This document shows, piece by piece, positions 6,268 to 53,565 of a stretch of DNA of 62,957 bases. The stretch's first letter is position 1, and each line of letters starts with the position of its first letter. A program made the position numbers and the translations under genes. Below the pieces are notes generated by a model, which made no database searches, was not told the DNA's origin, and saw only the letters and a list, made by a program, of their open reading frames with translations. Source of the DNA: Bacteroidales bacterium (GTDB lineage Bacteria; Bacteroidota; Bacteroidia; Bacteroidales; UBA4417); NCBI GenBank assembly GCA_038212135.1, contig JBBQUX010000004.1, forward strand, positions 1-62,957. Reading direction: 5' to 3'.

Positions 6268-6296
6268 AAAAAAAAAGAGCGGACATAAATCCGCTC
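6268..6296 (-). terminator. Intrinsic terminator after the sigma factor gene
   Basis: GAGCGGA/TCCGCTC stem followed by a T-run on the minus strand. Confidence 0.75.
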
Positions 6297-6308
6297 AATT
6301 TTATATTA

Positions 6309-7172
6309 TTAACCAAGGTAGGTTTTTAATATTTTACTTCTTGCAGTATGTTTGAGCCTGCGGATGGCTTTTTCTTTGATTTGTCGAACACGCTCGCGGG
6401 TGAGATCGAATTTTTCGCCGATTTCTTCCAGTGTGTAAGGATGACTGCCGTTGAGTCCGAAATATAGTTTGATAACATCAGCTTCGCGAGGCGTCAAAGT
6501 AGAAATAGCACGGTCAATTTCCTTACGGAGTGATTCGTAAAGCAGGCCTGTTTCAGGTGTAGGACCATCATCACTGCGCAGAACATCATACATGGTGTTG
6601 TCTTCGTCCTGAATGAGAGGAGCATCCATCGATACATGACGGCCGCTGTTACGCATTGATTCTTTTACTTCATTCTCGCTTATTTCGAGCAATGTAGCAA
6701 TCTCATCGCTGTTAGGTTCGCGTTCGTATTCCTGTTCGAGTTTCGCGTACGCTTTGTTGATTTTATTGATGGCACCGATTTTGTTTAGCGGAAGCCTCAC
6801 AATACGCGATTGTTCAGCCAAAGCCTGTAGAATCGACTGACGGATCCACCAAACTGCGTAGGAAATAAACTTAAATCCACGGGTTTCATCGAAACGCTGG
6901 GCTGCCTTTATTAGTCCGAGGTTTCCTTCGTTGATAAGGTCGGGCAAGCTGAGACCCTGGTTTTGGTATTGTTTTGAAACAGATACAACAAAGCGAAGAT
7001 TAGCCTTTGTGAGTTTTTCGAGTGCCGCACGGTCGCCTTGCTTGATTCGCTGTGCGAGCTGGACTTCTTCCTCAGCTGTAATCAGTTCTACTTTACCGAT
7101 TTCCTGCAGGTATTTGTCCAGCGAAGCGGGGTCGCGGTGAGTGACTAGTTTTGTTATATTGAGTTGCCTCAT
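6309..7172 (-). CDS. rpoD: RNA polymerase primary sigma factor (Bacteroidota SigA/RpoD type, no region 1.1)
   Basis: MRQLxIT start, [55 protein letters not shown]; 287 aa. Confidence 0.93.
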
Positions 7173-7235
7173 AGTTTAAATTTGTGTTGGCGTTCTGTAA
7201 TACGCAATTAATTGAATAAGGGTTTCATATTTATG

Positions 7236-7272
7236 AAAAAATACACCTTCCCCGTGAAATTAAGGGAAGGTG
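7236..7272 (-). terminator. Intrinsic terminator after pnp
   Basis: CACCTTCCC/GGGAAGGTG stem plus T-run on the minus strand. Confidence 0.75.
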
Positions 7273-7287
7273 CTTCGATTCAATAAC

Positions 7288-9420
7288 TTATTTTGGGCCC
7301 TCAGTATTTTCCGGACGGGGAAGTAAAACTTTTCGCGAAAGTTTCAACTTTCCAGTTTTGGGATCAACTTCAATTAATTTAACATCAATTTTATCTCCGA
7401 CTTTCAGAACGCTTTCCACATCTTTCAGGCGGCTCCATTCAATTTCGGATATATGAAGTAACCCATCTTTTCCGGGAAGAATCTCAACAAAGGCACCGAA
7501 AGCGGTAATTGTTTTAACGGTTCCATTATAAACTTCTCCAACTTCAGGAACTGAAACAATGCGCTTGATTTTTTCTTTAACAGCGTCAATTGACGCTTTA
7601 TTGCTCGAAACAATATCAATAACTCCAAATTCACCCACTTCTTCAATCACGATGGTTGCACCGGTTTCGCGCTGCATTTCCTGAATGATCTTGCCACCTG
7701 GCCCTATTACTGCGCCGATAAATTCACGCGGAATGGTCAGTTTAACGATACGTGGCACATGAGGCTTGTAGTCTTCGCGCGGTTCGGTAATGGTTTTGGC
7801 CATTTCGCCAAGAATATGCAAACGGCCCAGTCGTGCCTGTTCCATGGCTTTTGCCATGATTTCGGCTGAAAGCCCGTCAACTTTTATATCCATCTGGCAG
7901 GCGGTAATTCCATCGCGCGTGCCGGTAACTTTAAAGTCCATATCCCCAAGGTGATCCTCATCTCCGAGTATATCACTCAATACCGAATATTTTTCTCCTT
8001 CAGTAATTAATCCCATCGCGATCCCGGCAACAGGTTTCTTCAGTTTAACACCAGCATCCAGCAGAGCAAGTGTTCCGGCACAAACCGTAGCCATAGATGA
8101 TGATCCGTTCGACTCAAGGATATCGCTTACAATTCTGACGGTGTAAGGATTCAGGTCTTTACCAGGCATCATCGGCTTAAGAGCACGTAAAGCAAGATTT
8201 CCATGGCCGATTTCGCGTCGGCCGACACCCATGATACGTTTAACTTCACCTGTCGAGAAAGGCGGGAAATTATAATGTAGCAGGAAATCCTGCTCACCCT
8301 GAATTACAACGCCATCAATACTCTGTGTATCCAGTTTCGAGCCTAATGTAACTGTTGTGAGTGACTGAGTTTCGCCACGGGTAAAAATTGCGGAACCATG
8401 CGCTGTGGGCAAATAATCTACTTCACTCCATATAGCTCTGATCTCGTCGAGTTTTCGTCCGTCGAGCCTGCGTTTGTCGTTAAGTATCATAGCGCGCATG
8501 GCTTTTTTCTCTACGTCGTGGTAGTAACGGCTGATGAGAGGAGCATTTTCGGAAGCATAATCTGCTTCGAGTGTCGCGATATATTCCTGTTTTATGGCAG
8601 CAAAGGCTTCGGTACGTTCTTTCTTACCTGAACCCGACATCGCAACTGTATAAATTTTGTCGTAACAGAATGCAGCGATAGCAGCTTTCAGATCTTCATC
8701 ATTTTTTTCGTGGCAATATTCGCGTTTGGTTTTTGACTTTTCAACCAGTGCAGCAAGCTCAACCTGGGCTTTGCAGGCCAGTTTAATATGTTTGTGGGCA
8801 AAAACAATAGCGTCGACCATTGATTGCTCCGAAACTTCTTTCATTTCGCCTTCAACCATCATAATGTTGTCGGCCGTGGCAGCTACGAGGATGTCAATAT
8901 CAGCTGTTTCAATAATACTGTATGCCGGATTAACGACATATTCGCCATTGATGCGCGCTATACGAACTTCGCTAACTGGTCCGTTGAAAGGAATATCCGA
9001 TACAGCAAGAGCACTTGAAGCAGCAAGACAAGCAAGTGCATCGGGCAGAATATCATCATCTGACGAAATCAGGGTAACAATTACCTGTACTTCTGCGTGA
9101 TAATTGTCAGGGAACAAGGGGCGTAACGCCCGGTCGATCAACCTGGAAATTAAAATCTCATTATCAGTCGGGCGAGCTTCTCTTTTGAAAAATCCGCCCG
9201 GAAACCTGCCTGAGGCAGCATATTTTTCACGATACTCAACAGAAAGTGGCATGAAATCCACATTTTCCTTGGCTTCTTTCATTGCTACTACAGTAGCAAG
9301 AATCATGGTGTTTCCCATTTTTACAACACAAGCTCCATCAGCTTGTTTGGCGAGTTTTCCTGTTTCGATCGAAATCATGCGTCCGTCGCCAATGTCGAAG
9401 GTTTTAACAATTCCTTCCAT
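7288..9420 (-). CDS. pnp: Polyribonucleotide nucleotidyltransferase (PNPase)
   Basis: [46 protein letters not shown] and S1 domains; lies downstream of rpsO. Confidence 0.98.
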
Positions 9421-44823: not shown

Positions 44824-44839
44824 TGGCATTGTTATTGGA
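44824..44839 (+). promoter_or_regulatory. Sigma54 (-24/-12) promoter of the 44876-49461 operon
   Basis: TGGCATT-GTTA-TTGGA with correct spacing (GG rather than GC at -12), ending about 37 bp before the ATG. Confidence 0.6.
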
Positions 44840-44875: not shown

Positions 44876-46558
44876 ATGAAAGCAACATTCTATTTAATCA
44901 TCGGATTCTTACTGCTCTTCGCCACAAGTAGCATAAGCAGTCAAGAAATTACAAGCAAGAATACTAACTTGCAGACAGGATCAGTGTGTATCAAGTGTAC
45001 TCCTGACCTATATGAACTTACTTCTAAATGGGCCAGTGAATTTAGTAGCCTTAACCCGGAAGTGAAAATAAATGTATCTGAAGCAGACTTTGGGAGTACC
45101 GGTTTTGGAACGGGCGGGAGCCTGGGTTTTATTTCCGGCAAAGCCACGTCTGCAATCAGTAATGAATCAAACTGGAAAATGGTAGTAGGCCGCGATGTGG
45201 TTGTAGCTATTATGAATACAGAAAACCCGTTTTCGGCTGAAGTGAATAAACGAGGGATAGCGCAGGAGCAGCTTGCCCAAATGCTCATTAACCCGCAAAA
45301 GCGGAATTGGGGAGCAATGCTTGTTAACAGCCTTGCTGAACCTGTTCATATTTATATAGTAAATGATGAAACCGTTAAAGCCTGCCTGGCTAAGTTTATA
45401 AACAAAAGCAGCATCGAGTTTACGGGGATTACAGTTAGCAACAGGGACGAAGTTATTTCGGCTATTCAGAAAGACCCCTACGCTATCGGCTTTTGTGCAT
45501 TAGTTAACATTATGAATGAAAGTGACCAGGATTTAGCCGGTAATGTGACGTTATTACCAATTGACAAAAACAGAAATGGCACACTCGATTATATGGAAAA
45601 TATTTATACTGATCTCAATACTTTTCAACGTGGGGTTTGGATAGGGAAATACCCAAAATCACTTGTCAGCAATGTTTATGCTGTCAGTAGTGCTCAACCT
45701 GCAAACGAAAACGAACTGGAATTTCTGAAATGGGTAATTTCCGAAGGTCAGCAATATATGAATGCTAATGGTTACTGCGAACTGGTGGGCAGCGAGAGCC
45801 AGGCACAACTTGATAAGTTAACTATAGCTTCGGTAAATGTATCGCCGGTAAAAGATGCCTCACAAGCTGGCACTGTGTTACTTATTCTGGCTTTTGTTCT
45901 GGTTGCTGGTTTGGTGATCACTGCGGTAGTCCGGAACTACAGAAAGCAAAAAAATATAGCACCGGATTTTAATGTTTCACAGACGGGCTTTTCAGAAGAC
46001 ACCGTAATTCTTCCAAACGGTTTATATTTCGACAAGTCGCACACCTGGTCCTTTATGGAAAAAGACGGAAATATAACGGTAGGGGTTGATGATTTTCTGC
46101 AACATATTACCGGTCCGGTAACCCGCATTGAAATGAAAAGCCCGGGTGAAACTATCAGGAAAGGAGATGTGCTTTTTTCAATCATTCAATTTGGGAAACA
46201 ACTGAATATATACGCTCCTTTTTCGGGAATTATTAAAAAGCAAAATGTTAATCTTCTTTCTGATTCGTCGGTTATTAATTCGTCTCCTTATGAAGCAGGC
46301 TGGGTATATAGAATTGAGCCTTCAAACTGGATTAAAGAAGTTCAGTTAATGGATTTATCAGAAAAGTATCGTAGATGGCTTGGAGCCGAATTTATTAGGC
46401 TCAAAGAATTTATGACAGCAATTCTCAGACCGGAGAGTCTCGAATCTGCTCACGTTGTGCTTCAGGACGGTGGTGAATTGAAAGAAGGAGTCCTGGGAGA
46501 TTTCGGGCCAAAAGTGTGGGAAGATTTTCAGACAAACTTCCTTGATACTTTTAAATAG
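44876..46558 (+). CDS. PstS-like periplasmic binding domain + TM helix + cytoplasmic GcvH-like domain
   Basis: Signal peptide; WASEF...NPEVKINV, VGRDVVVAIMN, VISAIQKDPYAIGF, EFLKWVISEGQ (PBP type 2); TM at about aa 331-352; GLYFDKSHTW, VGVDDF, YAPFSG, INSSPYEAGW (H-protein fold). Confidence 0.8.
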   Translation: MKATFYLIIGFLLLFATSSISSQEITSKNTNLQTGSVCIKCTPDLYELTSKWASEFSSLNPEVKINVSEADFGSTGFGTGGSLGFISGKATSAISNESNWKMVVGRDVVVAIMNTENPFSAEVNKRGIAQEQLAQMLINPQKRNWGAMLVNSLAEPVHIYIVNDETVKACLAKFINKSSIEFTGITVSNRDEVISAIQKDPYAIGFCALVNIMNESDQDLAGNVTLLPIDKNRNGTLDYMENIYTDLNTFQRGVWIGKYPKSLVSNVYAVSSAQPANENELEFLKWVISEGQQYMNANGYCELVGSESQAQLDKLTIASVNVSPVKDASQAGTVLLILAFVLVAGLVITAVVRNYRKQKNIAPDFNVSQTGFSEDTVILPNGLYFDKSHTWSFMEKDGNITVGVDDFLQHITGPVTRIEMKSPGETIRKGDVLFSIIQFGKQLNIYAPFSGIIKKQNVNLLSDSSVINSSPYEAGWVYRIEPSNWIKEVQLMDLSEKYRRWLGAEFIRLKEFMTAILRPESLESAHVVLQDGGELKEGVLGDFGPKVWEDFQTNFLDTFK

Positions 46559-46613
46559 AAGATAAGTATATCATCTGTTCTGACCTAATTTTTAACCAAT
46601 TGAAACCAGAATC

Positions 46614-47480
46614 ATGGATCTGAATCGACGAAGTTTTTTTAAAGTAATGGGTGCAACCGGATTAACTCTCGCAGTTGGTAAGGACATGGATGCATCACCG
46701 AAACCCACCAAAGATAAAGAATTCTATGGCGTTTTATATGACTCGGCTCGCTGCAAGGGATGCCGGGGTTGCGAATACGATTGCGCCGAAGCTAACGGTT
46801 TGCCTGAGCCGCTTCCCAACAAAGAAATCAAAGGCTTGCGTAAGCCGGATGACAAGCATCGTACGGTTGTAAACGAATATAAAACATCAAAAGGAATAGT
46901 TTACGCCAAAATGCAGTGTATGCATTGCAACGAACCCGCCTGTGCGGCCGCCTGCCTCACGCAGGCTATGTGTAAAACCAAAGACGGTCCGGTTATCTGG
47001 AGGGCCGACAAATGTATGGGCTGCAGGTACTGCATGGTTTCGTGCCCGTTCGATATCCCAAAATTCGAATACCACAGTGCAAACCCTAAGATTGAAAAAT
47101 GTACCATGTGTTTCGAAACCAGGGTACAAAAGGGGGAACTGCCGGCTTGCGTGGAAAATTGTCCGAATGAGGCACTGATGTTTGGTACACGCCGCGAACT
47201 GATAACCGAAGCACGCCGGAGAATTTACGAAAAGCCGGATGAATATGTTGATCACATTTATGGTGAACATGAAGCCGGAGGAACTTGTTGGCTGCATATT
47301 TCACCGGTGCCGTTTAATGAACTGGGAATGAAATCAGTACAAACTGAATCGTACCCGGCATTGACAAAAGGATTCTTATACACCGTGCCGTCTGTGTTTG
47401 TGCTTGTTCCAGCATTGTTGTTAGGAATCCAGCAAGCAACCAAAAAGAATAACCTTAACGAAGATACCGAAGATGAATAA
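46614..47480 (+). CDS. Tat-exported 4x[4Fe-4S] protein, HybA/HmcB/DmsB type, with C-terminal TM anchor
   Basis: NRRSFFK; CxxCxxCxxxC, CMHCNEPACAAAC, CMGCRYCMVSCP, KCTMC...PACVENCP; IYGEHEAGGT. Confidence 0.9.
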   Translation: MDLNRRSFFKVMGATGLTLAVGKDMDASPKPTKDKEFYGVLYDSARCKGCRGCEYDCAEANGLPEPLPNKEIKGLRKPDDKHRTVVNEYKTSKGIVYAKMQCMHCNEPACAAACLTQAMCKTKDGPVIWRADKCMGCRYCMVSCPFDIPKFEYHSANPKIEKCTMCFETRVQKGELPACVENCPNEALMFGTRRELITEARRRIYEKPDEYVDHIYGEHEAGGTCWLHISPVPFNELGMKSVQTESYPALTKGFLYTVPSVFVLVPALLLGIQQATKKNNLNEDTEDE

Positions 47481-48735
47481 CAGGACCTTACTAGCCGCAG
47501 ATAACGATGGGAAATCCATCTGTAAGTTCCTGTTACGGGAACTGAAACCAAAAGGAAAGGCATTTACCCCTTTTAACATCATCTCTGTACCAATTATTCT
47601 TTTAGGCATAGTGTTGATTGTTTACCGTTTTATTCATGGAATCGGGGCAATTACAAATCTTTCGCAGGAAATCCCCTGGGGATTATGGATAGGATTTGAT
47701 GTGGTTACAGGCGTTGCTTTTGCCGGTGGTGCTTATGTGCTTACATTCATGGTTTACATCCTCAATATGAAAAAGTACCACTCCATTGTAAGAGTTACAG
47801 TGTTGAATGGTTTCCTTGCCTACCTGTTTTATGCAGGTGCTTTATTGCTCGATCTGGGGCGCCCATGGAATGTAATAAACCCAATTATTGGGAATAACTT
47901 TGGTGTAAGTTCAGTCCTATTCCTCGTAGCATGGCATTTTCTTTTGTATATGATTGCACAACTCATTGAATTTTCGCCTGCTATTGCCGAATGGCTTGGT
48001 GCCAGGCGGGCGCATAAAATTCTTTCAGGAATGACTCTGGCAGCTGTAATTTTTGGTATAACGCTGTCAATGCTTCACCAATCAGGATTAGGTGCGTTGT
48101 TCCTGATGGCGAAAGAAAAGATACACCCGCTGTGGTACAACGAATTTATACCGATCATGTTTTTCGTTTCCAGCATATTTGCCGGACTCTCCATGGTGAT
48201 TTTCGAAGGTTCCATCAGCCATAAAGTGTTCTCGAATCAGATCACTGATAAAAACCATAAGGCGCATAAAGGGATTGTTCACGGTTTAGCTAAAATATGT
48301 ACAGCAACACTTTTTGTGTATTTTTTCCTGCAAGTGCTGGTATTTCTTCATGGCAAACACTGGGATTTAATCAATACACCAATGGGTTACTGGTTCCTTG
48401 TCGAAATGCTCGGATTTGTGCTTGTGCCCATGATACTCTTTTTCTATAGTTTCCGCACAAGCAATAACTTTATGATCAGGCTGGCAGCACTTCTCACAAT
48501 GCTGGGTGTAATAATTAACAGGCTGAATGTTACTGTGATTGGTTTCAGATGGGATGCAGCTGTGCATTATGTCCCATCCTGGATGGAAATTGTAGTGACC
48601 CTCACTGTATTGTTTACTGAAATCTGGATTTTCAGGTGGGTAATCAACCGCATGCCTGTATTACGCGAATCACCTAAATGGGTAAATGAAACTAAAACTC
48701 AACAAGCTTTCGGAAAAGATAGTCTGAGGGCATAA
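47473..48735 (+). CDS. NrfD/PsrC-family integral membrane protein (HybB/HmcC type)
   Basis: TNLS..PWGLWIGFDV, DLGRPW, SMLHQSGLG, IHPLW, NRLNV, YVPSWMEI. Confidence 0.9.
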   Translation: MNNRTLLAADNDGKSICKFLLRELKPKGKAFTPFNIISVPIILLGIVLIVYRFIHGIGAITNLSQEIPWGLWIGFDVVTGVAFAGGAYVLTFMVYILNMKKYHSIVRVTVLNGFLAYLFYAGALLLDLGRPWNVINPIIGNNFGVSSVLFLVAWHFLLYMIAQLIEFSPAIAEWLGARRAHKILSGMTLAAVIFGITLSMLHQSGLGALFLMAKEKIHPLWYNEFIPIMFFVSSIFAGLSMVIFEGSISHKVFSNQITDKNHKAHKGIVHGLAKICTATLFVYFFLQVLVFLHGKHWDLINTPMGYWFLVEMLGFVLVPMILFFYSFRTSNNFMIRLAALLTMLGVIINRLNVTVIGFRWDAAVHYVPSWMEIVVTLTVLFTEIWIFRWVINRMPVLRESPKWVNETKTQQAFGKDSLRA

Positions 48736-48747
48736 AAAAACAATAAA

Positions 48748-49461
48748 ATGGACGGATTCACTTATACTAATATCTTTGATACAAAAGGAATTGAATACCT
48801 GATTGTTATTGCTTTCCTTTTGTTGCTCATCCCTTTCTGGCTGGCATTGAACAAGCGGGTAAAAACAAGGGAGAGGATACATAAAGCGTTGGGAGTGCTT
48901 TCTGCGAGTATGTTGCGGATTCCGCAAGGCATATTTTATAGCAAAAATCACACCTGGGCTTACCTTGAGAAATCGGGAGTGGCAAGGATCGGGCTGGATG
49001 ATCTTTTACTCCATATCACAGGCGAAGTGAGTGTAAGCCATTGTAAAAGCCCTGGCGAAACAGTAAAAAAAGGAGATTTACTGGCAGAAATTGATCATAA
49101 AGGAAAGTCGCTGAACATTTATTCTCCTATTTCCGGGGAGGTAATAAGTGCTAACTCCGTACTAAGTGTGAACCGGGAATTGCTGAACGCGGATCCCTAC
49201 GGAAATGGCTGGATTTATAACATTAAACCTTCTGACTGGGTAGCCGAAATCTCTTCGCTTTTCCTGGCAGGCAATGCAACAGACTGGTTAAAAAGAGAAC
49301 TGGTCAGGTACAAAGATTTTCTGGCTATGAGTATGCCAAAATATTCGCCCGAAACTTCGATGGTAATGCTTCAGGATGGAGGTGAACTGGTAGAAAATTC
49401 ACTATCGGAAATGCCACAGGAAATATGGCAGGATTTTCAAAAGGAATTTCTAACTCCATAA
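48748..49461 (+). CDS. Membrane-anchored GcvH-like protein
   Basis: IFDTKGIEYL then one TM; GIFYSKNHTW, RIGLDD, YSPISG, NADPYGNGW, LQDGGEL. Confidence 0.85.
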   Translation: MDGFTYTNIFDTKGIEYLIVIAFLLLLIPFWLALNKRVKTRERIHKALGVLSASMLRIPQGIFYSKNHTWAYLEKSGVARIGLDDLLLHITGEVSVSHCKSPGETVKKGDLLAEIDHKGKSLNIYSPISGEVISANSVLSVNRELLNADPYGNGWIYNIKPSDWVAEISSLFLAGNATDWLKRELVRYKDFLAMSMPKYSPETSMVMLQDGGELVENSLSEMPQEIWQDFQKEFLTP

Positions 49462-49811: not shown

Positions 49812-49840
49812 AAAAACCGGTTAATTATCGCCGGTTTTTT
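49812..49840. terminator. Terminator-like hairpin upstream of the kinase
   Basis: AAAAACCGG...CCGGTTTTTT. Confidence 0.55.
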
Positions 49841-49936: not shown

Positions 49937-51607
49937 ATGGTTTTCATTAAGAAACAGAAAGAGCAAAAGAGTTTTGTACGTACTTTCTTAGGAAAATACC
50001 TCAAATTCGGACGATCCATCTATGGGCGGGTTGTGCTCATTATCACCATATTGTCTGTATTCCTGTTTGTATCGTTTGGTATTATTTTCCGTTCAGTTTA
50101 TGAGCAATACCTCAATACAGTTATTCTGCAAAGCGGAAACAATGTTGGTTCGCTGGTTGAAGGTGCTCTATCTCATTCAATGCTCGAAAATGACAAAGGC
50201 GCACTTCAGTATACACTTGATGTCATCCATACCATGCCTGGTATTGAGGATGTGAATATGTACGACAGCGATGACAGCCTGGTATATTCCTCTTTCCCTG
50301 CTGATACTTCCGGCCATTTCAATGCCAATTGTAAGGGATGCCACGCTGATATCGGCACGATGTTCCCAAAGCATGAAAAGTCGTATAAAATCATTACGGC
50401 CGAAAGTGAGTGTAAAATGAGCAAGAATACTAAAGGCCAAAGGCACCTTTTGATACGATCGCCGATTCTGAATTCGAAATCATGCTACGAAAGCAATTGT
50501 CATGCTCACGGTCCCAAAGAAAAAGTGTTAGGTTCACTCGTTATAAAAGTACCGTTGAAAGATTTTGATGCAGCGGTACAAAAGTCGTCGGTCGAATTTT
50601 ACCTGCTGGCTATTTTTACTACTATACTTCTGGCTTCCTTTCTGATTTTATTTACGCGGCGTGAGATTAAAAAACCATTAAATAAACTTATTGAAGCAAG
50701 CATTGCTGTAGCGGACGGAGATAAAAGCACTCGTGTAGAAATACGCCCCAACCAACTCGACGATATGCGTATGGTTTCGGTTGCATTTAACGATATGCTC
50801 GATAACCTACAGACAGCAACCACTGAACTCGAAAACTGGTCGCAACAGCTTGAATACAAGGTACAGAAAAAATCGGAAGAATTGGGTGCAGCCCAGAATG
50901 AACTGATGCATATTGAGAGGCTGGCTTCGCTCGGGAAATTATCGTCATCGGTTGCGCACGAAATCAATAATCCTTTATCAGGGATATTGGTTTATACCAA
51001 GCTTGTTCACAAGCAATTAAGCAATCCTGATCTTACTCCCGAAAAAAAAGAACTTATGCTTAAGCACCTGAAACTCATTGAAAACGAAACCAAACGCTGC
51101 GGCGATATTGTAAAAGGTCTTCTCGATTTCTCCAAAAAGGATCAGGAAGATTTTGAACCATTACATTTGCATACTATTTTGCAGGATACAGCCGATTTAA
51201 TGTCACATTCCATCAAAATCGCCGATGTAAAGTTTACTAAGGAATTCTCAGCCAAATCCGACCTCGTATATTGCAGCCCGAACCAGGTGAAGCAGGCGTG
51301 CATGGCCATTCTTGTAAATGCAACCGAGGCCATTACTGAAAATGGAGAAATTGTTGTGCGTACTTCGAATCCCGATCCCGATACTATCAACCTCGAAATC
51401 ATTGATAACGGCATAGGAATTGCCCCGGAAGATATCCCGCATATTTTCGAGCCCTTCTTTTCGACCAAGCAGGAAGTGCGTGGTATAGGGCTGGGACTAT
51501 CCATCGCCCATGGAATTATTCAAAGCCACAAAGGGAAAATCCAGGTGAGATCCGAACCCGGTCTTGGTACCACGATTTCGATAACATTACCTTTAATCAG
51601 AAGTTAA
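49937..51607 (+). CDS. Sensor histidine kinase (2 TM, HAMP, HisKA, HATPase) with periplasmic CxxCH and CxxxxCH motifs
   Basis: CKGCH and CYESNCH between the TMs; AHEINNPL, NATEA, DNGIG, FEPFFSTK, GIGLGLSI. Confidence 0.93.
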   Translation: MVFIKKQKEQKSFVRTFLGKYLKFGRSIYGRVVLIITILSVFLFVSFGIIFRSVYEQYLNTVILQSGNNVGSLVEGALSHSMLENDKGALQYTLDVIHTMPGIEDVNMYDSDDSLVYSSFPADTSGHFNANCKGCHADIGTMFPKHEKSYKIITAESECKMSKNTKGQRHLLIRSPILNSKSCYESNCHAHGPKEKVLGSLVIKVPLKDFDAAVQKSSVEFYLLAIFTTILLASFLILFTRREIKKPLNKLIEASIAVADGDKSTRVEIRPNQLDDMRMVSVAFNDMLDNLQTATTELENWSQQLEYKVQKKSEELGAAQNELMHIERLASLGKLSSSVAHEINNPLSGILVYTKLVHKQLSNPDLTPEKKELMLKHLKLIENETKRCGDIVKGLLDFSKKDQEDFEPLHLHTILQDTADLMSHSIKIADVKFTKEFSAKSDLVYCSPNQVKQACMAILVNATEAITENGEIVVRTSNPDPDTINLEIIDNGIGIAPEDIPHIFEPFFSTKQEVRGIGLGLSIAHGIIQSHKGKIQVRSEPGLGTTISITLPLIRS

Positions 51608-51618
51608 AGTGCCTAATC

Positions 51619-52956
51619 ATGGAGAAAAAAATATCAATACTTATTGTTGATGATGAAGAATCAGTCAGGGATTCGCTGAACAGCTGGTTTGTCGAAGACG
51701 GGTACCGTGTGGAATGTGCCGAAGATGCGAAGAAAGCGTTATCGATTCTCGAAGCCGGTAATTTCGACATTATCCTGGCCGATATTAAAATGCCTGGCAT
51801 GGACGGACTGGAAATGCTGCGCCGGATCAAAGCACTGAATAAGGAATCGATAGTAATTATCATGACGGCATTTGCCACAGTTGATACAGCCGTGAAGGCA
51901 TTGAAGGATGGAGCCTTTGATTATGTTACAAAACCTTTCGATCCTGACGACCTTTCGCACCTGATCCGCAATGCATCCAAGCAGATTTCGCTGTACCACG
52001 AAAATGAAACCTTAAAGAAAAGGGTAGATTCACTCGAAAGTGTCGAAGATTTGATTGGCAAAAGCGAAGCCATCAAAAAAGTATTACGTGAAGTTGAAAG
52101 TGTTGCCCCTACGAATTCATCTGTTATAATAACCGGCGAAAGCGGCACAGGTAAAGAACTTGTTGCCAGGGCTATACATGCTAATTCGCTGCGAAAATTT
52201 TATCCTTTGGTGAGTGTTCATTGCGGTGCCCTCACTGAAAGTTTGCTCGAAAGTGAGCTGTTCGGACACGAAAAGGGTGCTTTTACAGGAGCAATGTACA
52301 ACCGTAAGGGCCGTTTCGAAATGGCTGACTGCGGTTCTATTTTCCTGGATGAAATTGCTACTATTTCCACTAAAATGCAGATTGAACTCTTACGCGTTCT
52401 GGAGACCAAAAGTTTTATGAGGGTTGGCGGGAATAAGGAAATTACTTCTGATTTCAGGGTGATTTGTGCCACAAACCGCGATCTGAAAAGCATGGTCGAA
52501 AAAGGAACTTTCCGCGAGGACCTGTATTACCGGTTAAATGTGATGAATATTCATGTACCTCCATTGCGCGAACGTGTGGAGGATATTCCATTACTGGTTG
52601 AGTATTTCATCAGGAAGTATTGTACCTCTATGAACCGGCCGCTTATCACTGTCGATGCACCGGCTCTGAAACGGATGCTCGACTACGCGTTTCCGGGCAA
52701 CATCCGCGAATTGGAGAATATGGTGGAACGTGCTATTGTTGTTGGCAATGGTAAAAAAATAATGCTGAAAGATCTGCCTCTGGCTAAAGATGTTGTTGAT
52801 AGTTCCATTGAGAGTCTGGATGATTTTGAAAAAGCATTTATCCTTCAGATCCTGAACAAATACAGCTGGAATATCTCCCGCACCGCTACAGCACTGAAGG
52901 TTGACAGGGTGACACTGTACAACAAGATTAAGAAGTATGGGTTGAAACCGAAATGA
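51619..52956 (+). CDS. NtrC-family sigma54-dependent response regulator
   Basis: REC (VDDE, DIKMPGMDG, KPF), GESGTGKE, GAFTGA, FLDEI, FREDLYYRL, PGNIRELEN, Fis-type HTH. Confidence 0.96.
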   Translation: MEKKISILIVDDEESVRDSLNSWFVEDGYRVECAEDAKKALSILEAGNFDIILADIKMPGMDGLEMLRRIKALNKESIVIIMTAFATVDTAVKALKDGAFDYVTKPFDPDDLSHLIRNASKQISLYHENETLKKRVDSLESVEDLIGKSEAIKKVLREVESVAPTNSSVIITGESGTGKELVARAIHANSLRKFYPLVSVHCGALTESLLESELFGHEKGAFTGAMYNRKGRFEMADCGSIFLDEIATISTKMQIELLRVLETKSFMRVGGNKEITSDFRVICATNRDLKSMVEKGTFREDLYYRLNVMNIHVPPLRERVEDIPLLVEYFIRKYCTSMNRPLITVDAPALKRMLDYAFPGNIRELENMVERAIVVGNGKKIMLKDLPLAKDVVDSSIESLDDFEKAFILQILNKYSWNISRTATALKVDRVTLYNKIKKYGLKPK

Positions 52957-53031: not shown

Positions 53032-53565
53032 ATGGATCATCCAACTATAACTATAGTATCATTTGCACATCTCAGGAGGGGATTTCTTGAGAAGCTCAGT
53101 GCGGATGTTCAGCATCAACTGCAAAGCCAGGTGTTGATAAAAGAGATGCACCTCGATTTAAGTGAATATTTTGACGCCGGACGCAGGCAATACAATGGTG
53201 ATAAATTGCTGAAAGCGGTTGATCAGTTTGATTTTCCTAATTCTGATAAGACTATTGCCTTAGTTAATGTTGACCTTTTTATTCCTATACTAACCTATAT
53301 TTTCGGGCAGGCACAATTAGGAGGCCGTACAGGTATTGCTTCCATATACCGCCTTAGCAACGAGCGCTACGGGATTTCGGATGGCGATAATTTCCTGCTG
53401 CAACGGTTCACTAAAGAAGTGATTCATGAACTGGGTCATTTATTCGGGTTAATTCACTGCCACACACCCACCTGTGTAATGCGCTCAAGCACCTACGTGG
53501 AGGATATCGATCAGAAGGGAATGGGGCTTTGTTCCAAATGCAGGTACGAATTGAAGCTGGATTAA
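53032..53565 (+). CDS. Archaemetzincin (M54) zinc metalloprotease
   Basis: RRQY, DLFIPILTYIFG, HELGHLFGLIHC...CVM...C..C. Confidence 0.92.
   Translation: MDHPTITIVSFAHLRRGFLEKLSADVQHQLQSQVLIKEMHLDLSEYFDAGRRQYNGDKLLKAVDQFDFPNSDKTIALVNVDLFIPILTYIFGQAQLGGRTGIASIYRLSNERYGISDGDNFLLQRFTKEVIHELGHLFGLIHCHTPTCVMRSSTYVEDIDQKGMGLCSKCRYELKLD

Follow-up and report, generated by a model that had tools for sequence, protein, structure and literature searches.

GcvH-fold proteins with glycine in the lipoyl-lysine position, encoded with an Fe-S/NrfD quinone module in a Bacteroidales genome

The window analyzed here is the whole 62,957-nucleotide (nt) stretch of contig JBBQUX010000004.1 (assembly GCA_038212135.1, forward strand) from a Bacteroidales bacterium of lineage UBA4417. 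At positions 44876–49461, it carries four closely packed plus-strand genes encoding a 560-amino-acid (aa) protein, a 288-aa iron–sulfur (Fe-S) protein, a 420-aa membrane protein of the NrfD family, and a 237-aa protein (Table 1). The 560-aa and 237-aa products, termed here the long and short H-like proteins, each contain a domain with the fold of GcvH, the H protein of the glycine cleavage system. In both domains, Gly occupies the column of the lipoate-bearing Lys, and a conserved Lys stands one residue later (position +1). Both are genuine GcvH-fold domains, and it is reasonably probable that they serve as lipoate-free, membrane-tethered, fixed protein-contact subunits and not as cofactor carriers.

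The segments in question are IIQFGKQLNIYAP in the long protein (residues 436–448 of open reading frame 44876–46558; 46181–46219) and IDHKGKSLNIYSP in the short protein (residues 115–127 of open reading frame 48748–49461; 49090–49128). An earlier note on this DNA had placed Gly at the lipoyl-lysine position of both domains, and this is borne out for Gly440 and Gly119 by alignments of sequences, profiles, and structures, none of which has a gap at the hairpin. In phmmer comparisons with solved structures, both proteins align without gaps with esvkaasdiyap of Escherichia coli GcvH (3a8i_E) and esvktasdiyap of Thermus thermophilus GcvH (1onl_A), a register that sets Gly over the lipoyl Lys and the adjoining Lys over Ala or Thr; for the short protein, the segment aeidhkgkslniysp is paired with avaesvkaasdiyap of E. 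coli GcvH. Profile–profile alignment with hhalign (44 short-form proteins against 23 canonical GcvH proteins of relatives) places Gly119 on Lys63 of the genome's own GcvH with a probability of 99%, and when both forms and that GcvH are aligned together with MAFFT, Gly again falls in the lipoyl-Lys column. In the structural alignment, residues 57–184 of the short-protein model superpose on residues 2–128 of the lipoylated E. coli H-protein 3ab9 (126 residues; root-mean-square deviation (rmsd) 1.5 Å; Z 17.8). This superposition, taken with the phmmer numbering, means that Gly119 takes the place of residue 64, which we take to be the lipoate-bearing Lys, consistent with the title of the 3ab9 entry. 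No structural alignment put the neighboring Lys at the hairpin tip, the outcome that the earlier note had named as refuting its reading. Bona fide GcvH has Lys in the lipoyl column at the turn; the H-like proteins have Gly440 and Gly119 there.

The predicted structures are consistent with this register. The AlphaFold models have a mean predicted local distance difference test score (pLDDT) of 81.3 for the long protein and 84.0 for the short protein, with pLDDT blocks of 92–97 at the hairpins. DSSP assigns strands 111–117 and 120–125 in the short model, separated by a turn consisting of Lys118 and Gly119, and strands 432–438 and 441–446 in the long model, separated by Phe439 and Gly440. In both models, Gly is the second residue of a two-residue turn, and the returning strand begins with Lys. 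The statement in the earlier note that the Lys is out of register therefore agrees with both the alignments and the models, in which Lys441 and Lys120 lie off the tip.

Conservation was counted in two sets: 137 cluster representatives (those of 150 listed that are full-length and classable by length, from clusters less than 50% identical to each other) and 60 rows per form from related loci in species-representative genomes, with locus L023, which has an in-frame stop in its short-form gene, excluded for both forms. In the long form, all 106 representatives have Gly and 105 have Lys at +1 (Arg in the remaining one), and all 60 loci have both residues with no other residue at either position. 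In the short form, Gly is present in 20 of the 31 representatives and in 57 of the 60 loci; position +1 is Lys in 25 representatives (Arg in 4, Gln in 1, His in 1) and in 57 loci (Arg in 2, Ile in 1). Canonical GcvH of relatives has Lys in the lipoyl column in 23 of 23 cases. The residue preceding Gly is mostly Asn or Asp (60/106 long and 15/31 short representatives; 45/60 short-form loci), and Gln is found at −2 and +2 of the hairpin Gly in 74 and 75 of the 106 long representatives. Judged by these alignments, the Gly/Lys state is an old, maintained trait of the family and is due neither to chance nor to decay, and Lys at +1 would be a functional residue and no leftover because it is near-invariant.

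Whether the displaced Lys could carry lipoate was considered from mutants, surface charge, and ligase content. As described in the available part of the review PMC6270654, D41K and A43K variants of the lipoyl domain of Bacillus stearothermophilus are lipoylated on the correct Lys alone; A43K gains no second lipoylation, and a domain in which Lys is shifted by one residue (D41K/K42A) is not lipoylated. According to the available part of a preprint, the lipoylated Lys is strictly conserved in 18 GcvH and LbpA proteins, canonical Lpl(AB) relies on the acidic surface of GcvH, and an isoelectric point (pI) below 4.5 is colored as GcvH-like (10.64898/2026.10.01.755906). This acidic surface is lost in both H-like domains: the aligned domain cores have pI values of 6.09 and 6.46 and a net charge of −1 each, against a pI of 4.05 and a charge of −15 for the genome's own GcvH, and the median pI in the family is 8.05 for the 106 long forms and 8.18 for the 31 short forms, whereas 94 canonical proteins have a median of 4.05. 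The replacement of Lys by Arg or Ile in some short forms also counts against lipoylation because neither residue accepts an amide-linked cofactor.

The four genes are part of a cassette of seven conserved genes, completed by a sensor kinase, a response regulator, and a metalloprotease-like gene (Table 1), and no gene for a lipoate or other ligase is found among the seven. Elsewhere in the assembly, which is 81.7% complete, one 333-aa LplA-type ligase (TIGR00545, 414.8 bits) and one BirA-type ligase are the sole PF03099 members seen, and a separate canonical GcvH of 126 aa is encoded (141.7 bits); contigs C8, C36, and C98 carry these genes. In the same assembly, LipB was not found and no LipA scored above the cut-off; the source organism may depend on lipoate salvage. 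We hold with good confidence that neither H-like domain is lipoylated. The earlier note had called them probably non-lipoylated, a view supported by the register and models, the lipoyl-domain mutants, the lost acidic surface, and the occurrence of Arg at the Lys position, as a deduction from these and not a direct readout; its further description of the domains as interaction modules is plausible.

Both H-like proteins belong to PF01597 by a wide score margin (82.4 and 80.5 bits for domains 1 and 2 in the genome scan; gathering cut-off 22.2 bits). Searched singly against Pfam, the long protein matches PBP_like_2 (28.1 bits, residues 33–290) and GCV_H (80.1 bits, residues 383–496), and the short protein matches GCV_H (78.8 bits, residues 64–182). 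With Foldseek, the long-protein model matches PstS-type phosphate-binding proteins (template-modeling score (TM-score) up to 0.72) and GcvH, and domain 2 matches solved H-proteins with TM-scores of 0.89–0.91 (Z 17.1–18.5, rmsd 1.3–1.6 Å, 125–130 residues in structural alignment). Common to both H-like proteins is a private C-terminal extension of about 55–64 residues, in which the LQDGGE motif is invariant and aromatic residues are conserved. In 60 sequences, the invariant residues are Glu505, Arg508, Phe512, Gln530, Gly532, Gly533, Pro545, Trp548, and Gln552 in extension 1, which has no Pfam match, and Glu184, Phe191, Gln209, Gly211, Gly212, Glu213, Trp227, and Phe230 in extension 2. By the positive-inside rule, both H-like domains probably face the cytoplasm. 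The N-terminal tail of the short protein (residues 1–17, 48748–48800) is also among its best-kept parts, with Phe10, Thr12, Lys13, Gly14, Glu16, and Tyr17 invariant in 60 sequences, which suggests a contact at the outer face of the membrane.

The Fe-S protein carries a twin-arginine translocation (Tat) signal, is of the Fer4_11 type (69.5 bits), and is encoded next to the NrfD-family membrane protein, as is general for quinone modules of the NrfC/NrfD type. The Fe-S protein scores 319.3 bits with the HmcB model (cut-off 420) and 230.4 with HybA (cut-off 263), and the membrane protein scores 391.3 with HmcC (cut-off 550) and 255.2 with the HybB-type model (cut-off 450). The pair would represent a periplasm-facing quinone module of a familiar kind, and no catalytic subunit is found among the seven conserved genes. 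The NrfD-type subunit is without a cofactor for electron transfer across the membrane (available part of PMC8076601, together with knowledge of the family); a cytoplasmic dithiol arm would therefore be without an obvious electron path.

In the favored arrangement, a lipoate-carrying swinging-arm protein would have been converted to a lipoate-free, membrane-tethered subunit, in which Gly closes a tight two-residue turn ([N/D/x]-Gly) and the conserved Lys opens the returning strand. Each H-fold domain would be hung in the cytoplasm from one transmembrane helix, and the two paralogues would be accessory subunits at the cytoplasmic face of the Fe-S/NrfD quinone module. Fixed contact surfaces would then be provided by the C-terminal extension and by the Gly-Lys hairpin, whose conservation is tighter in the long form, with Lys acting by charge and not as a cofactor attachment site. 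Such contacts could stabilize the complex, gate the proton path on the N side, or connect to the kinase/regulator pair. What we infer from the data as a whole is that lipoate is absent, that the domains lie in the cytoplasm, that the proteins belong to one complex, and that the hairpin has a contact role. A role as subunits is supported by the 8-nt overlap of the Fe-S and NrfD-like genes, the 12-nt gap between the NrfD-like and short H-like genes, and the occurrence of the seven genes together in 62 of 80 loci. Complex prediction that combined the NrfD-like and short H-like proteins with residues 320–560 of the long protein as partner gave scores of 0.61, 0.61, and 0.62; with the partner replaced, the scores were 0.00 and 0.00, and with the NrfD-like protein replaced, the score was 0.57, a result that speaks neither for nor against binding.

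Several points weigh against contact subunits free of lipoate. The conservation of Lys at +1 (105/106; 60/60) equals that of a modified or catalytic residue. The turn geometry of the hairpin is that of predicted structures, and any binding of the H-like proteins to one another or to the NrfD-like protein is likewise putative. E. coli LplA accepts short peptides as substrates. The incompleteness of the genome limits the weight of the missing ligases. Each of the 20 cassette genomes tested has some route to lipoylation (LplA above the cut-off in 17 and slightly below it in 2; the remaining one, G015, has LipA at 359.5 bits, LipB at 161.5 bits, and a canonical GcvH), and none therefore shows the cassette working without lipoate; among 151 genomes of the order, about 21 have a match that reaches the H-like half, the other matches being to the PstS-like half only. 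The mutants described in the available part of PMC6270654 are E2 lipoyl domains and not GcvH, and Lys at +1 alone is not among them. Lastly, basic LbpA acceptors are lipoylated by their own sLpl(AB) ligases, according to the available part of the preprint (10.64898/2026.10.01.755906), and a non-acidic surface is therefore compatible with lipoylation.

Other readings of the conserved pair have been weighed against this background. A bolder one, unlikely but worth stating, is that the Gly-Lys hairpin marks a new H-protein-derived functional class, in which Lys either is modified by an unrecognized enzyme or acts as a "finger" that docks on the N-side face of the NrfD-type subunit and couples proton/quinone chemistry to the cytoplasm; in that case, the cassette would be an energy-coupling or redox-sensing device that is widespread in anaerobic Bacteroidota. 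It is quite unlikely that conservation is purely structural, with Gly kept for the tight turn and Lys for solubility or folding, so that the hairpin is partnerless and function resides in the transmembrane helix, the N-terminal tail, and the C-terminal extension. Asn or Asp before Gly is typical of tight two-residue turns, as turn-type statistics indicate, and the frequency of these residues in the family fits such a role, as does the larger number of invariant positions in the extension and N-terminal tail of the short form than in the hairpin. However, an exposed Lys in 105 of 106 clusters that are less than 50% identical exceeds the usual demands of folding, and the retention of Gln at −2 and +2 points to a recognized surface.

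The caveat of the earlier note that a shifted or different modification might occur stays alive, as the out-of-register Lys is nearly invariant. In the first version, which is distinctly improbable, Lys441 and Lys120 would be lipoylated by the resident LplA or by an unrecognized ligase, and the redox-active dithiol arms would join the quinone module to a cytoplasmic partner. The near-invariance of Lys in the long form, the intact GcvH fold, the presence of a lipoylation route in every cassette genome tested, and the ability of dedicated ligases to lipoylate basic acceptors (10.64898/2026.10.01.755906, available part) are consistent with this, but the Lys is out of register in both sequence and model, and the one-residue-shifted Lys of lipoyl domains is unlipoylated (PMC6270654, available part). 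In addition, Arg, Gln, His, or Ile replaces Lys in 6 of 31 short representatives and 3 of 60 loci, a second lipoate ligase was not found in the 81.7% complete genome, and the NrfD-type subunit is without a cofactor to feed a cytoplasmic arm (PMC8076601, available part). In the second version, which is very improbable, Lys would bear another modification (e.g., another acyl group) or serve as a binding site for a lipid head group or small anionic ligand, making the H-fold a sensor or a non-lipoate carrier. The conservation of Lys and Gly, the move of the domain from acidic to neutral or basic, the tether that keeps it near the membrane, and the metalloprotease-like gene of unassigned role in the cassette would all suit such chemistry. 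However, the seven genes do not include a modifying enzyme, there is no positive evidence for any ligand, and the tolerance of Arg in some short forms is easier to reconcile with a role of the charge than with a covalent role. Biotinylation was also considered: a BirA-type ligase is present, but the hairpins (FGKQ and KGKS) differ from the Met-Lys-Met context of biotinyl domains.

Compared with GcvH itself (PF01597; E. coli 3ab9/3a7a, T. thermophilus 1onl, pea 1htp), the H-like domains have the same fold across the whole domain, with 34–35% identity and the HxW and GW core motifs retained, whereas their scores fall below the thresholds for bona fide GcvH (TIGR00527, 62.1 and 72.0 against a cut-off of 115.85; NF002270, 75.1 and 81.9 against 117). 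They further differ from GcvH in having Gly for the lipoyl Lys, a pI of 6.1–6.5 in place of the acidic 4.05, a membrane tether, and a private C-terminal extension, and in being encoded with a quinone module and not standing alone. Like LbpA of sHdr sulfur oxidation, they are GcvH-like proteins in a redox system beyond glycine cleavage and have a non-acidic surface (10.64898/2026.10.01.755906, available part). LbpA, however, has a strictly conserved lipoylated Lys, in the column where the H-like pair has Gly, and usually two conserved Cys residues near its termini (same preprint, available part); H-like domain 1 has no Cys, domain 2 has one (Cys105), and sHdr genes and an sLpl(AB)-type ligase are neither in the cassette nor found in the genome at 81.7% completeness. 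GcvH-L of Streptococcus pyogenes (5a35) is another H-protein-like domain outside glycine cleavage (Z 12.2, rmsd 2.1 Å, 111 residues), but it is soluble and 17% identical. This protein is lipoylated and then ADP-ribosylated, and is encoded in a macrodomain/sirtuin operon, a context that is absent at 44876–49461.

The module resembles HybA/HybB of E. coli hydrogenase 2 and HmcB/HmcC and NhcB/NhcC of Desulfovibrio in combining a Tat-exported four-cluster Fe-S protein that has a C-terminal anchor with a cofactor-less NrfD-type subunit (PMC8076601, available part). Every score is nevertheless under the equivalog cut-off, so the pair is of this kind but an equivalog of neither HybA/HybB nor HmcB/HmcC. 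The seven conserved genes include no hydrogenase, molybdoenzyme, or multihaem cytochrome, and neither a cytochrome c nor an HdrD-like gene is among them, whereas in the Hmc complex a multihaem HmcA and HmcDEF accompany HmcB/HmcC. For the two H-fold subunits, no counterpart exists among the NrfD-family complexes listed in the available part of PMC8076601, in which words beginning with glycine- or lipo- do not occur. Cofactor-less barrel-sandwich-hybrid domains, such as those of HlyD-type adaptors and the RnfC N-terminal domain, likewise use the superfold as a contact or structural module without lipoate or biotin. These are distant fold kin (HlyD 5c21_B, Z 6.1; RnfC_N, a weak Pfam match of 18.9 bits against a cut-off of 25.6), whereas the H-like domains are close to GcvH itself.

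The cassette is an undescribed quinone-linked cluster of anaerobic Bacteroidota. Among species-representative genomes, it is complete in 62 of the best 80 related loci, including the archaemetzincin-family gene, and has the same order in 60 of these 62; of the 18 incomplete loci, 16 end at contig ends. Related loci are carried by Bacteroidales, Lentimicrobiaceae, Prolixibacteraceae, four Sunxiuqinia species (S. elliptica, S. dokdonensis, S. rutila, and S. indica), and others. Of 2861 candidates, 2071 proteins match the H-like family at E ≤ 0.001; clustered at 50% identity, the family comprises 315 clusters with E ≤ 1e-30. It has at least 298 matching stretches in species-representative genomes, and it occurs in the long and short architectures, both of which are present at 44876–49461. 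A search of the ESM Atlas returned matches to the family's own clusters only. In a quick maximum-likelihood tree, 139 H-like rows are parted from 7 canonical GcvH rows by a long branch with a Shimodaira–Hasegawa-like approximate likelihood ratio test (SH-aLRT) value of 100; the long forms cluster, and one row classed as short by length sits among them. In the searchable literature, which leaves aside supplements and possible gene tables, nothing was found that links a GcvH-like protein to HmcB, NrfD, HybA, or HybB.

H-protein-type carriers are defined by their lipoyl-lysine, yet this large natural family keeps the fold at about 1.5 Å rmsd and fixes Gly there with Lys beside it. If the family is cofactor-free, a swinging-arm carrier has been re-used as a fixed subunit of a membrane complex, and the automatic name "glycine cleavage system H protein" is wrong for its members; should the displaced Lys prove to be modified, the requirement for an acceptor Lys exactly at the turn would have to be revised. 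Either way, the cassette represents uncharacterized respiratory or sensing equipment of Bacteroidales that are common in sediment, groundwater, and digesters, and cultured carriers (Sunxiuqinia species) make it testable.

Table 1. Features of the H-like genes and their cassette (positions in the window).
Feature	Position	Strand	Basis or remarks
Putative sigma-54-type −24/−12-like element, TGGCAT-N5-TTGG	44824..44839	+	Consensus match with 1 mismatch; 37 nt upstream of first gene
Long H-like protein, 560 aa	44876..46558	+	Signal peptide, periplasmic PstS-like domain, one transmembrane helix, GcvH-fold domain, private C-terminal extension
Transmembrane helix of long protein, residues 331–352, then RNYRKQK	45866..45931	+	Helix 331–353 in AlphaFold model
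GcvH-fold domain 1	46022..46363	+	GCV_H 82.4 bits; TM-score 0.92–0.95 and rmsd 1.1–1.4 Å to E. coli H-protein chains
Gly440-Lys441, long protein	46193..46198 (Gly 46193–46195, Lys 46196–46198)	+	Gly in lipoyl-lysine column, Lys at +1
C-terminal extension 1, residues 497–560, LQDGGE motif 528–535	46364..46555	+	Conserved in 60 sequences
Tat-exported 4x[4Fe-4S]-type protein, 288 aa, C-terminal anchor, HmcB/HybA-like	46614..47480	+	NCBIfam, Fer4_11, RRSFF at residue 5
NrfD-family integral membrane subunit, 420 aa, HmcC/HybB-like	47473..48735	+	NCBIfam and Pfam NrfD, 47.9 bits
Short H-like protein, 237 aa	48748..49461	+	14-residue N-terminal tail, transmembrane helix, GcvH-fold domain, C-terminal extension shared with long protein
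Transmembrane helix of short protein, residues 15–34, then NKRVKTRERIHK	48790..48849	+	Single helix 9–48 in AlphaFold model
GcvH-fold domain 2	48937..49293	+	GCV_H 80.5 bits; structural matches to solved H-proteins
Gly119-Lys120, short protein	49102..49107 (Gly 49102–49104, Lys 49105–49107)	+	Gly in lipoyl-lysine column, Lys at +1
C-terminal extension 2, residues 183–237, LQDGGE 207–214	49294..49458	+	Conserved in 60 sequences
Sensor histidine kinase	49937..51607	+	HAMP, HisKA, HATPase_c
Sigma-54-dependent response regulator	51619..52956	+	Response_reg, Sigma54_activat 232.1 bits, HTH_8
Archaemetzincin-family metalloprotease-like gene, last of cassette	53032..53565	+	NF033823 156.9 bits (cut-off 145)

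Two related loci depart from the common pattern. L023, from a Rikenellaceae metagenome-assembled genome (MAG), has a short H-like gene (8001–8708) with an in-frame stop at codon 141, which may be a pseudogene or an assembly error. L078, from a Chlorobiota MAG, has both H-like genes, the kinase, the regulator, and the metzincin-like gene; just 1.7 kb (6295–8001) separates its H-like genes, and this interval has no match to the Fe-S or NrfD-like proteins.

As for expression of the cassette, 60 of 64 related loci have the motif TGGCA[CT]N5TTG no more than 200 nt upstream of the first gene, whereas it occurs in 0 of 64 stretches of coding sequence taken as controls. The short H-like gene and the kinase gene are 475 nt apart, and this gap contains a terminator-like hairpin with a T run (49812–49839); the kinase/regulator pair may therefore be transcribed separately from the four structural genes. 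The outer domain of the kinase has one CxxCH motif (CKGCH, 50330–50344) and one Cx4CH motif (CYESNCH, 50483–50503), both of which are present in 74 of 75 related loci; these Cys-His motifs suggest the binding of two c-type haems.

In genomes of the same order that are without the cassette, stand-alone proteins of about 315–375 aa that are related to the PstS-like half of the long protein are numerous (E 1e-41 to 1e-66, model positions 1 to about 350), so a whole-protein profile overcounts cassette holders. EF-hand calcium loops follow the pattern D-x-N-x-N-G-x-[ILV]-D-x-x-E. Residues 230–241 of the PstS-like domain (45563–45598) form a 12-residue loop, DKNRNGTLDYME, that matches this pattern and runs into a helix in the long-protein model. 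In 60 loci, Asp230 and Glu241 are each conserved in 60/60, Asn232 in 57, Asn234 in 58, Gly235 in 54, and Asp238 in 54.

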